A stretch of DNA of 64,000 nucleotides, from the sequence record NC_007023.1; one strand, written 5' to 3'. The DNA comes from Escherichia phage RB43. The notes beneath the pieces are model-generated. The model worked only from the letters and a program-made list of their open reading frames with translations. It had not been told where the DNA came from and searched no databases. Below, piece by piece: positions 3,203 to 18,248 of this stretch. The position numbers were made by a program, and so were the translations under genes. Each line of letters begins with the position of its first letter. Position 1 is the first letter of the stretch.

Positions 3203-4880
3203 GTATCAGAATATTCTGTCGGTCGGGAATACCCCGATCGAACTCGAATTCGATACTGCAAAGAAAACCCTGATTACGGGTAAAAATGGTGGTGGTAAAT
3301 CCACACTGATCGAAGCGTTGACGTATGCTCTTTTTGGTAAGTCATTTCGTGATCTAAAAGTCGGGCAACTGGTAAACAGTGTCAACAAAAAGAAATGCCT
3401 TGTTGAACTCGAAATTGAATATGGCAAAGACTCGTACAAAATTGTACGTGGACAGAAGCCGAAGGTATTCGAGATCTGGAAAAACGGCGATAAGTTAGCA
3501 GAAGATTCGGCATCGGGTGATTATCAATCTCAGCTTGAATCCATGCTCAATATTAACCTGGTTGGATTCAAACAGGTAATCGTGTTGGGTACTGCTGGTT
3601 ATACTCCATTCATGGAACTGAGAACACCGGATCGCCGTAAACTGGTTGAAGACCTGTTGTCGCTATCGGTTATCAGTGAAATGGATAAGCTGAACAAATC
3701 ATATGTTCGTGGTGTTAATCAGCAGTTGGATACCCTGTCTATGCAGGTGAACCACATCCAGCAGCAGATCGCTACACACCAGCGCTTCATTGATGAACAG
3801 CGAGCTAAAGCGAACCAGAACAACGCACGATACAAAGAGATCTACGATAGTCACGTTGAAACCGCGAAGAACATCAAAGCACAGCTTATGCAGTTGCAAG
3901 CGGAGATCGCAGAAACGGTGATCACTGGTGCAGACCGAACGGAAGATATAAACAAACTCCGTGATGGTTATACGCGCCTCTCTATGACTGTAGAACAGTT
4001 TAAAAAGCTGGAAGTGATGTATCAGAAAGGTGGTGAGTGTCCGGCCTGTAAACAGGCGATTAAGCCCACTCCTGAACGCATGGAAGAGATCGCCAACAAT
4101 ATCAAAGCTGGTACACAACGATTAACGCTGATCAAAACCAAACAGGACGAGTTGCAAGGCATTATGAACGAGTTGCTTCAACAGCAACGCGCACTGAATG
4201 CTATGAAAACGAAATACGAAGCCCTGAAAGGTACTTTACAAAACGAAGTCGCCAACGCTAAACGCGCACAAGCTATTATGGAACAGGCAAGCGCGGAAGT
4301 CGTTATTGACGAAGAACCCGTTAAGCAGTTGCAGCAACAAGAAACAGAACTGAATGATAAACGTCAAGGATACGTGAAAGAAAAATATATCCGTGGTATC
4401 GTTACGGATATGTTAAAAGATTCAGGTGTGAAAGCCAGTATCGTAAAACGATATATTCCGTACTTCAATAAACAGATTGCGTATTATCTGAATCTGTTGG
4501 GTGCTGATTATCAATTTACACTGGATGATGAATTCAACGAATCGATCAAATCTCTGGGACGCGATGATTTTAGTTACGCATCATTCAGCCAGGGTGAACG
4601 CGCACGAATCAACCTATCAATTCTGTTTACATGGCGCGATGTAACAAGTAAAGTCTCCGGCGTGGATCTGTCTCTGCTGGTACTTGATGAAGTGTTTGAT
4701 GGGCCACTTGATAAAGAGGGTTCATTTGCGATTAAATCACTTCTGGATTCTGTCGATGGTAACGTTATTGTCATCAGTCATCAGGATCTTGATCCGCAAG
4801 ATTTCGATCGACACATCATCATGTCTAAGGTTGGACGGTTCACAAAACCATCAATCAAAGATATGGCGGTATCATGTTAG
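3177..4880 (+). CDS. 46: Recombination nuclease subunit gp46 (Rad50/SbcC-like ATPase)
   Basis: 567 aa; Walker A GKNGGGKST, long coiled coil, CPxC zinc hook, signature SFSQGERARINLS, D-loop LVLDEVFDG; start MKLNFKKIKYQNILSVG matches T4 gp46. Confidence 0.92.
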   Translation: MKLNFKKIKYQNILSVGNTPIELEFDTAKKTLITGKNGGGKSTLIEALTYALFGKSFRDLKVGQLVNSVNKKKCLVELEIEYGKDSYKIVRGQKPKVFEIWKNGDKLAEDSASGDYQSQLESMLNINLVGFKQVIVLGTAGYTPFMELRTPDRRKLVEDLLSLSVISEMDKLNKSYVRGVNQQLDTLSMQVNHIQQQIATHQRFIDEQRAKANQNNARYKEIYDSHVETAKNIKAQLMQLQAEIAETVITGADRTEDINKLRDGYTRLSMTVEQFKKLEVMYQKGGECPACKQAIKPTPERMEEIANNIKAGTQRLTLIKTKQDELQGIMNELLQQQRALNAMKTKYEALKGTLQNEVANAKRAQAIMEQASAEVVIDEEPVKQLQQQETELNDKRQGYVKEKYIRGIVTDMLKDSGVKASIVKRYIPYFNKQIAYYLNLLGADYQFTLDDEFNESIKSLGRDDFSYASFSQGERARINLSILFTWRDVTSKVSGVDLSLLVLDEVFDGPLDKEGSFAIKSLLDSVDGNVIVISHQDLDPQDFDRHIIMSKVGRFTKPSIKDMAVSC

Positions 4881-5065
4881 AACGTGAGTTCGATTTAAAG
4901 ACCTCTCCCGAAGTGGATAGGTATTATCTACACAACGAACTGTTGGAAGAAAAACACGTTGTTACTATGGAAGATGTCAAAGAAGCCTTTAAAGACAATC
5001 AGTTAGAGCTAACGCGAATACTGAATAACAAATCGTCTGTATGGTTTCTTGAAAAAATCTATTGA
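4874..5065 (+). CDS. hypothetical protein (63 aa)
   Basis: ORF overlapping gp46 stop; followed by terminator. Confidence 0.4.
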   Translation: MLEREFDLKTSPEVDRYYLHNELLEEKHVVTMEDVKEAFKDNQLELTRILNNKSSVWFLEKIY

Positions 5066-5091
5066 CACCTGAACATAAATACCTTAAAGTT

Positions 5092-5124
5092 GCCCGTGTA
5101 CTGAGTTGCACGGGCTTTTATTTT
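5092..5124 (+). terminator. Rho-independent terminator
   Basis: GCCCGTG...CACGGGC hairpin followed by TTTTATTTT. Confidence 0.65.
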
Positions 5125-5136
5125 GAGGAACGGAAA

Positions 5137-5850
5137 ATGATTAACGAAAAAATGACACATCGCGAAGCGTTGGAAATCTTAGGGGCTACTGGTACTGAAT
5201 CCAAAGCCGAAATGTCCAAACTCTTCAAACGTGCTTCTCTGCGTAATCACCCCGATCGTGGTGGTAGCACAGAACTCATGCAAAAAATTAACCAGGCATA
5301 TGACGTAGTAACGAGAACAAACAGTTCTGGCGAAACTATGATGGATATGCGAGCGCGTCACGCAGCGAATAAAAAAGCGTGGGAAGAAAAACTGGATGCG
5401 TATTTTGTTGTTGCTAAGAACTATTTCAGCACGAAATTTAACGCACAGGAATTCGCTGAATACTTCACCAAATACACCGGACAACCGACGACCTTCACAC
5501 AGGAAGTCAAGAAAGATACAATTTCCGTATCTGCTGTGTTCCGTTTCACTTCTGGTGATGCTCACTTTGATTTCGCTTTCTACTGCAAGCCGGAAGAAGG
5601 TAAAGGTTTGATGTCTCCTGATGCAAGCGCATTGGGTAGTGTTTCTGTCAATACTCTGGTATTGGTTGGAACCAAAAAACATAAAATGGCAAGCCGTGAA
5701 TATCAATGGGGCAAAAACCCAGATAAGATCACACCAGAAAGCCTGTTCCCGTCCAAGAAACTTGCATCAATTTTCAGCCCGACACAAAAGAACCTCAAGT
5801 TCAAACGTGCTGACTATATGACTTCTTTCCGCAAGCACTTAGACGCATAA
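5137..5850 (+). CDS. J-domain (DnaJ-like) protein
   Basis: N-terminal J domain with HPD motif (RNHPDRGGSTELMQKINQAYDVV); start ATG 5137 after terminator and GAGGAA RBS. Confidence 0.7.
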   Translation: MINEKMTHREALEILGATGTESKAEMSKLFKRASLRNHPDRGGSTELMQKINQAYDVVTRTNSSGETMMDMRARHAANKKAWEEKLDAYFVVAKNYFSTKFNAQEFAEYFTKYTGQPTTFTQEVKKDTISVSAVFRFTSGDAHFDFAFYCKPEEGKGLMSPDASALGSVSVNTLVLVGTKKHKMASREYQWGKNPDKITPESLFPSKKLASIFSPTQKNLKFKRADYMTSFRKHLDA

Positions 5851-5913
5851 ATTAGCGGTAATGATATCTATGTTCCTGTAGGCGACCTGAAAGTTCGTTT
5901 CTATCGTCATGTA

Positions 5914-6834
5914 ATGATGCGTAAAGGTGCGTATGTGTTTAGTGCGGTATACGACCCAGCGGTAAGTAAATTCCGTTCTGCTGCAAACCTTCGCGGTACT
6001 ATGTTTGAAGACGAAGACGGCGCATGTTTGGATATGATTATCGACACTTTCAAAGAAATGCAGAAAGCAAAACCGAACGTTAACGGTATTGTCGGTATCA
6101 TTGACAAGATGAACGCAGAATTCGCAGCGGGACACCGTTCAGCATCTTTCGTCAAACGTATGGCACAGCAAGCAGCAGCACCGAAGCCGGAAGAAAAGCC
6201 GAAACGCACTGTTAACCGTATCAGCAAAGATGATTATTTCAACGCATTGAAACAAGCGGGTGCAACATTCCGTAGCAACTACGGTGAGTTTGATAACGGC
6301 GCTGGATTGACTTTCCACTTCAAACGCGAGATCAGCAACCGTAAAGGCTTCTGGAGTTTCAGCAGTTTTAATTTCATGCACTCTGGTCAACGTCATGTTG
6401 AATGGTTGAAAGATATCGACATTGACGAAGACAGCAAAGGTGCAAGTATCGGTCTGATGGTTGATACTCTGAAACAGTTGCGTGGTGTTGCTGATTGGTA
6501 TACTGCAAGAAAGATCCTGGAAGCGATGCGCGACAACTTCAAAGCTGGTAAGTTCTCCGCACCACACGTTAAGAAAGAAGCCGAACAGAAACGCACTGAG
6601 GCGCAAGCTAAGGACGAGTTAGGCGCACAGCCTACCAAACCCCAGGAAGCAAAGAAAGAAGCCCCAGCAGTTGATAAGGCTCATGAGGCGCAAATGGCTA
6701 AAGAGAAAGCACAGATGAATGCAACCATTCGTTCTATGCTCTCCGCTCTGGTTAAAGCTGGACGCAAAGACACGCCGGAAGAAATTAAAAAAGCAGTTGA
6801 TGAAGCAATCGCTCTCTGGCGCTTGAAACACTAA
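5914..6834 (+). CDS. hypothetical protein (306 aa), charged Lys/Ala/Glu-rich C-terminus
   Basis: Long ORF in same frame as the J-domain gene, separated only by one TAA stop. Confidence 0.55.
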   Translation: MMRKGAYVFSAVYDPAVSKFRSAANLRGTMFEDEDGACLDMIIDTFKEMQKAKPNVNGIVGIIDKMNAEFAAGHRSASFVKRMAQQAAAPKPEEKPKRTVNRISKDDYFNALKQAGATFRSNYGEFDNGAGLTFHFKREISNRKGFWSFSSFNFMHSGQRHVEWLKDIDIDEDSKGASIGLMVDTLKQLRGVADWYTARKILEAMRDNFKAGKFSAPHVKKEAEQKRTEAQAKDELGAQPTKPQEAKKEAPAVDKAHEAQMAKEKAQMNATIRSMLSALVKAGRKDTPEEIKKAVDEAIALWRLKH

Positions 6835-6850
6835 CTGATTGTGTTATACT

Positions 6851-6880
6851 GGGAACTGTTGAAAAGCAGTTCCCTTTTTT
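6851..6880 (+). terminator. Rho-independent terminator
   Basis: GGGAACTG...CAGTTCCC hairpin followed by TTTTTT. Confidence 0.65.
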
Positions 6881-6894
6881 ATGAGGAAAATACT

Positions 6895-18171: not shown

Positions 18172-18248
18172 GGCCCTTTAGCTCAATTGGTAGAGCGAAC
18201 CCCTCATAAGGGTGTGGTTTCCGGTTCGAGTCACGGAAGGGGCCACCA
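18172..18248 (+). tRNA. tRNA with anticodon CAU (Met or Ile2), atypical T-arm
   Basis: 7-bp acceptor stem GGCCCTT/AAGGGCC, D-arm GCTC-AATTGGTA-GAGC, anticodon loop CTCATAA, T-loop TTCGAGT, 3' CCA; T-stem needs removal of A18233 to be canonical. Confidence 0.65.

Follow-up and report, generated by a model that had tools for sequence, protein, structure and literature searches.

We conclude that the rki gene of RB43 is very probably the product of a recent nonsense mutation that truncated a 565-aa J-domain gene, and that the open frame following it, ORF058w, is most likely a remnant of that gene which is translated poorly or not at all. The evidence comes from the window, i.e. the whole 64,000-nucleotide stretch of DNA that was analyzed, and from the equivalent locus in related phages.

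The window is 100% identical to the RB43-GVA isolate of Enterobacteria phage RB43 (HE858210.2), whose genome was sequenced by Perrody et al. 2012 (PLoS Genet 8:e1003037, PMC3486835). The ORF at 5137-5850 is Rki, or RB43 ORF057w (AAX78579.1/CCK73906.1), and the downstream ORF is RB43 ORF058w (AAX78580.1/CCK73907.1). Rki was characterized in that work, by experiment, as a DnaK-binding J-domain protein: it binds host DnaK through its HPD motif, its J-domain can replace that of DnaJ (J-domain swaps complement), its toxicity needs DnaK and His38, and the H38Q mutation abolishes both toxicity and complementation (PMC3486835). Rki also stabilizes sigma-32, northern and western evidence indicates that rki is expressed early, and the delta-rki phage shows impaired growth in the cold, a defect that is suppressed by dnaK mutations. 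According to the same authors, Rki diverts DnaK, so that sigma-32 escapes DnaK-dependent degradation, heat-shock proteins increase, and growth of RB43 is aided (PMC3486835).

Perrody et al. also noted that the TAA stop of rki in RB43 is GAA (Glu238) in RB16, which yields a 565-aa "Rki-58 fusion" called Rki16, confirmed by western blot in RB16 and showing lower toxicity and weaker complementation than Rki. They took the 237-aa Rki as the reference form and the RB16 and KP15 proteins as "fusions", and listed RB42 and Aeromonas phage 65 as unfused (PMC3486835). Nothing relevant on Rki after 2012 was found within the literature searched. The observation and its obvious interpretations are thus already known, except for the direction of change; this direction (GAA to TAA) and the position of the stop inside a domain are the additions of the present analysis.

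The features of the locus are listed below. Structural boundaries marked AF2 come from an AlphaFold2 model of a 565-aa homologue, 94% identical, with a mean pLDDT of 81.9.

5062-5090, plus strand: early sigma-70-type promoter of rki (TTGACA, 17-nt spacer, TAAAGT), from a consensus scan with 10/12 matches
5092-5125, plus strand: intrinsic-terminator-like hairpin with T-run, right after the -10 box (9-bp stem, 6 GC pairs)
5125-5129, plus strand: Shine-Dalgarno (SD) sequence GAGGA of rki, anti-SD duplex -6.2 kcal/mol
5137-5850, plus strand: rki (ORF057w), 237 aa, with J-domain, long helix, and domain A, then domain B as far as its first helix
5155-5349, plus strand: J-domain, residues ~7-71, HPD at 5248-5256 (residues 8-62 in AF2)
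residues 68-100: long helix (AF2)
residues 103-212: domain A (AF2)
5803-6177, plus strand: domain B, residues ~223-347, spanning the TAA (AF2, pLDDT 90+)
5848-5850, plus strand: ochre codon TAA, codon 238, almost certainly a former GAA (Glu) changed by G to T at 5848
5851-5913, plus strand: 21 sense codons (ISGNDIYVPVGDLKVRFYRHV), aligned and conserved in all homologues
5914-6834, plus strand: ORF058w, 306 aa from ATG 5914, distal part (residues 260-565) of the putative ancestral 565-aa protein
residues 355-359: low-confidence linker (AF2, pLDDT below 50)
6220-6546, plus strand: domain C, tandem duplicate of B, residues ~362-470 (hhalign, AF2)
residues ~481-512: disordered charged linker (AF2, pLDDT below 50)
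6676-6828, plus strand: C-terminal helical hairpin, residues ~514-564 (AF2, helices 514-542 and 547-564)
6851-6884, plus strand: intrinsic terminator closing the rki-058w transcription unit (10-bp stem and T-run)

Direct reading confirms the layout given in the preliminary description, in which a J-domain ORF is followed by open sequence in the same frame across a single TAA. The J-domain with an intact HPD motif that it described is also found, with HPD at residues 38-40 and support from profile search, and the DnaK recruitment that it read from this domain has been demonstrated for Rki in the published experiments (PMC3486835); the 20 sense codons that it placed before the first ATG are in fact 21. 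The rki frame stays open after 5850 up to the TAA at 6832-6834, and the first in-frame ATG lies 64 nt past the internal stop, the GenBank start of ORF058w being the next codon, ATG 5917 (305 aa). The Rki translation matches positions 1-237 of the phrog_7739 profile and the translation of 5851-6831 matches positions 239-565, and the RB43 frame aligns with the 565-aa homologues with zero gaps, the order J-A-B-C-tail being collinear throughout. Nevertheless, the uninterrupted single polypeptide of the phrog_7739 members is not encoded in RB43, which has TAA at codon 238.

The J-domain assignment relies on several searches. Pfam PF00226 (DnaJ) matches with an E-value of 1.5e-5 and 25.4 bits, slightly under its gathering score of 27.8 bits, and a family profile of 21 members matches E. 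coli DnaJ J-domain structures over residues 7-71 with an E-value of 1.3e-8; the helical fold of a J-domain is present. Pfam and profile searches detected no G/F region, zinc-finger (DnaJ_CXXCXGXG), or DnaJ_C domain, the J-domain alone being recognized. Because these three elements were not detected, Rki belongs, on sequence grounds, to class C (type III) of the J-domain proteins, in agreement with the published assignment.

In the AF2 model, domain B consists of a helix (224-235), six strands between residues 238 and 290, and three helices (296-347), and domain C (residues 364-469) has the same topology. Comparison of residues 222-341 (B) with residues 362-480 (C) by hhalign gives a probability of 99.3% and an E-value of 3.4e-20 over 117 columns. 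The B/C repeat starts at a conserved KRADY motif, 15 residues before the RB43 stop. Residue 238 is not in a linker but opens the first strand of domain B, and the first three strands (238-240, 243-248, and 251-260) all show pLDDT above 90. Region 5851-5913, which contains no start codon and no ribosome-binding site (RBS) in RB43, encodes these three beta-strands in the relatives and is homologous to the start of domain C. Met260 and Met261, the two proposed starts of ORF058w, are conserved internal residues at the end of the third strand.

Naturally short homologues, such as the 337-aa protein of Aeromonas phage Assk, which is related to phage 65, carry domain A and then domain B; of the nine that were tested, six have B over nearly its entire length, and in two (L028 and L029) it was not detected. 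J-A-B looks like the conserved core of the family, and no other version examined ends where RB43 Rki does, after J-A and a single helix of B. Domain A was also considered as a third copy of the B/C repeat and rejected, with an hhalign probability below 1%. Sequence searches with domains A, B, and C gave no matches outside these phages, and a fold search returned a weak resemblance to actin-capping protein and PsiB.

We extracted the gene from nine relatives, each of which has one ORF of 565-567 codons from the conserved start (annotated CDS of 565-575 aa). Codon 238 is GAA in seven of them (RB16, CfP1, Xman, Miller, IME-CF2, Lw1, and GuL6), whereas Citrobacter phage Margaery and phi1_146002 have AAG as the aligned codon; the remaining aligned relatives show other sense residues. 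In the 1698 nt of the frame, a single substitution, the G to T at 5848, separates RB43 from Citrobacter phage CfP1. There are 3, 4, and 8 further differences with Xman, Miller, and IME-CF2, respectively; all of these are synonymous, which indicates that the distal part is under purifying selection in the RB43-CfP1 clade and that the RB43 stop is very recent.

The same picture emerges from wider sampling. A homologue is present in ~200 phage genomes, and all aligned homologues read through the position of the RB43 stop, none being ~237 aa long. Wider searches gave protein clusters of two sizes, 18 with 561-573 aa and 3 with 349 aa, all reading through; in IMG/VR, 8 loci encode 565-575 aa and another 8 encode 332-361 aa, with no form of ~237 aa. 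In a 21-protein cluster at 90% identity, the only split entries among the 15 members listed are the two RB43 halves, each deposited in two independent submissions. A 70-nt probe with the stop at its centre finds 100% identity, among 13 close records, only in those of wild-type and delta-rki::gfp RB43, and the TAA-containing 23-mer is absent from all IMG/VR contigs scanned. Judged from these comparisons, the ancestral state is, nearly certainly, the long form, of which RB43 Rki is a recently truncated allele.

Two entries among the relatives call for caution. The sole relative examined with a broken copy is Klebsiella phage CPRSA (OM971648.1, L012 1501-3210), in which the annotation divides the rki16 homologue into three successive ORFs (486, 666, and 453 nt), and tblastn covers it only in two pieces; RB43 alone stops at codon 238. 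The CPRSA break likely results from assembly-error frameshifts rather than from another natural split, and the reads would have to be checked before CPRSA is taken as a second "unfused" case. The other entry is a 590-aa protein of the Rki16 90% cluster (P0027, MEG1902774.1), which is labelled "MAG: Bacteroidales bacterium" and lies on a 61-kb contig; this contig is almost certainly a Pseudotevenvirus sequence mis-binned into a bacterial MAG.

Upstream of rki, the TTGACA and TAAAGT boxes were named as the rki early promoter by Perrody et al. (PMC3486835). We observe that this promoter, with its -35 box at 5062 and its -10 box ending at 5090, adjoins a strong hairpin (5092-5115, plus T-run), whose equivalent is annotated as a terminator in CfP1, Miller, and Margaery. 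The hairpin presumably ends upstream transcripts from genes 46 and 45.2. The rki transcript would start inside its 5' arm, so that read-in from 46/45.2 would be stopped and rki transcripts spared. The terminator at 6851-6884 has an equivalent annotated as such in CfP1 and Margaery.

The neighborhood shows some further particularities. The 63-aa ORF at 4874-5065, between gene 46 and rki, is a homologue of gp45.2, as annotated in RB16 and Lw1; an overlap of 7 nt between its start and the end of gene 46 suggests that the two are translationally coupled. A homing-endonuclease gene is found between 46 and 45.2 in RB16 (L002 768-1343), phi1_146002 (L004 559-1269, minus strand), and Lw1 (mobE, L009 1-69), and is absent there in RB43 (window ~4874-4880), CfP1, Miller, and Margaery; this looks like a mobile-element presence/absence polymorphism adjoining the rki locus. 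The annotated start of the thymidylate synthase CDS of Margaery (L003 4409-4633) lies ~220 nt after the end of frd, compared to 2 nt for td in the other relatives, a gap that could be due to an intron, an insertion, or a mis-annotated start.

The translation initiation signals differ between the two ORFs. The SD of rki is at a site where an RBS is annotated in Miller and Margaery, and the next gene after ORF058w has an anti-SD duplex of -6.3 kcal/mol. No SD sequence was found at the two ATGs of ORF058w, with duplex energies of +1.2 kcal/mol (5914) and +0.9 kcal/mol (5917). The best in-frame alternative start is GTG 5935, with an SD-like AAGG (-3.9 kcal/mol), and the ATGs closest to the internal stop (5861 and 5870) are out of frame. 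ORF058w is probably little translated, since it has no RBS and its first ATG comes 64 nt past the stop. It is most likely a remnant translated poorly or not at all, and neither an independent gene nor a readthrough extension.

The preliminary description had left three options for the TAA: a separate gene, a readthrough extension, or a point error splitting one larger J-domain protein, and had proposed to compare fused and separate orthologues. The relatives show one continuous frame, the three ORFs of the CPRSA copy aside. Two real genes, with ORF058w translated from ATG 5914/5917 or nearby and cooperating with Rki in trans, would agree with the intact state of ORF058w, its annotation as a CDS, its location on the rki early transcript between one promoter and one terminator, and its complete domain C and C-terminal hairpin; a possible cooperation of rki and ORF058w was also suggested by Perrody et al. 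(PMC3486835). Nevertheless, we consider this option improbable. The annotated starts have no SD and fall on conserved residues in the middle of a folded domain, within the strands of domain B; the openness of ORF058w is explained by the single-base distance from CfP1, and the two-gene layout of RB43 occurs in no relative examined. Moreover, when ORF058w, over-expressed in that study from a plasmid only, was produced together with Rki, the activity of Rki was unaffected in the assays (PMC3486835).

Programmed or suppressor-mediated readthrough of the TAA, giving a mix of Rki and the 565-aa protein, appears more improbable still. The common frame and the 21 intervening sense codons, which encode conserved protein sequence, are compatible with it, as is the base after the stop, an A. 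An A at this position is not the strongest termination context in E. coli. However, UAA is the least leaky stop in this host, and a search for a suppressor tRNA in the 64-kb window gave only a tRNA-Met (CAT) at 18172-18248. As no relative keeps the stop, no recoding signal can have evolved, and the flanks are identical to those of CfP1, which has GAA there, leaving no dedicated signal. Neither a conserved stop, nor a leaky or stimulatory context, nor a suppressor tRNA in the window was found, and the readthrough option is unsupported. In the text and legend of the published work, a fusion band is mentioned for RB16 only, and Rki for RB43 and RB42 (PMC3486835).

As for the point error, the split was indeed caused by a point change, but this change is a real mutation and not an error in the sequence. 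A sequencing or assembly error could be suspected from a single-base difference from very close relatives. It is excluded because the split, with 237-aa and 305-aa products, is seen in two independent RB43 submissions (AAX78579.1/AAX78580.1 and CCK73906.1/CCK73907.1). The TAA junction is also retained in the delta-rki::gfp derivative, and the anti-Rki antibody is reported to show Rki in RB43 infection and a larger fusion in RB16 (PMC3486835). We regard this explanation as effectively refuted.

The recent nonsense truncation is the explanation that best accounts for these data: CfP1 is the same but for the stop codon, this codon lies within domain B, and downstream initiation signals are missing. 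The ancestral gene would have encoded a 565-aa class C protein with J-domain, long helix, A, B, linker, C, charged linker, and hairpin. A single G-to-T transversion at 5848 in the RB43 lineage almost certainly changed Glu238 (GAA) into an ochre stop, so that translation from the early promoter and strong RBS now stops at residue 237, yielding Rki. The 327 downstream codons would still be open only for lack of time to decay further since this recent mutation. With 5848 as its sole difference from CfP1, RB43 has evolved nothing for independent initiation or for readthrough. Some ORF058w product may arise by reinitiation past the TAA or by weak initiation at GTG 5935, and its domain C and C-terminal hairpin would be intact; a product from Met260/261 would miss one helix and three strands of domain B.

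What the truncation means for the phage can be approached from the properties of Rki16. The lower toxicity and activity of the full-length RB16 protein suggest that the truncation is a gain-of-activity allele, and we infer from the same comparison that the B-C-tail module might moderate or redirect activity. It is conceivable, although doubtful, that Rki is a recent hypermorphic truncation, that B, C, and the tail restrain or redirect the J-domain in the native protein, and that ORF058w is a non-functional remnant. Loss of B, C, and the tail, perhaps selected when a Citrobacter-type phage grew on E. coli, would then have produced a more potent DnaK hijacker, stabilizing sigma-32 more strongly; the adaptive and autoinhibition parts of this proposal are speculative. 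On E. coli, the truncated form may bring an advantage or be neutral. Given that RB42 is also split according to Perrody et al. (PMC3486835), the mutation may predate laboratory passage, which leaves room for selection favoring the split. With one substitution only, there is no statistical signal, such as relaxed constraint, for a lost function downstream.

These results imply that the only phage J-domain protein characterized by experiment comes from a truncated allele, with the cut inside a domain, whereas the natural forms in the relatives, the CPRSA copy aside, are J-A-B proteins of ~340 aa or J-A-B-C proteins of ~565 aa. Any generalization from Rki, regarding toxicity, the strength of sigma-32 stabilization, or the monomeric two-domain structure, should consider that the full-length protein is the natural form. 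RB43 ORF058w is best annotated as the distal part of a disrupted gene.

The locus is identical in sequence to that of Perrody et al. (PMC3486835), and the interpretation alone differs, the long form being ancestral here. The closest proteins are the phrog_7739 members Rki16 (RB16p058, UniProt D9ICB9) and those of Citrobacter phages CfP1, Miller, IME-CF2, and Xman, Escherichia phage Lw1, and Buttiauxella phage GuL6, which are collinear with RB43 over 565 codons; they have Glu at codon 238 and form one polypeptide, whereas RB43 stops there, and the CfP1 protein is the same as that of RB43 except for residue 238. The short homologues of phrog_13942 (332-361 aa, from the Aeromonas phage 65/Assk/AS-sw group and metagenomic viral contigs) have J, A, and mostly B in the same order, with 24-54% identity, but end after B, without C and tail. 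The Aeromonas copies occupy a different genomic neighborhood from RB43 rki, and none ends at the RB43 position. Outside this family, viral T antigens, TIM14/Pam18, and E. coli DjlA or HscB have, like Rki, an HPD-containing J-domain at the N-terminus and no Gly/Phe or zinc-finger regions. Class C J-domain proteins use Hsp70 for a specialized task rather than for general folding, and Rki does likewise.
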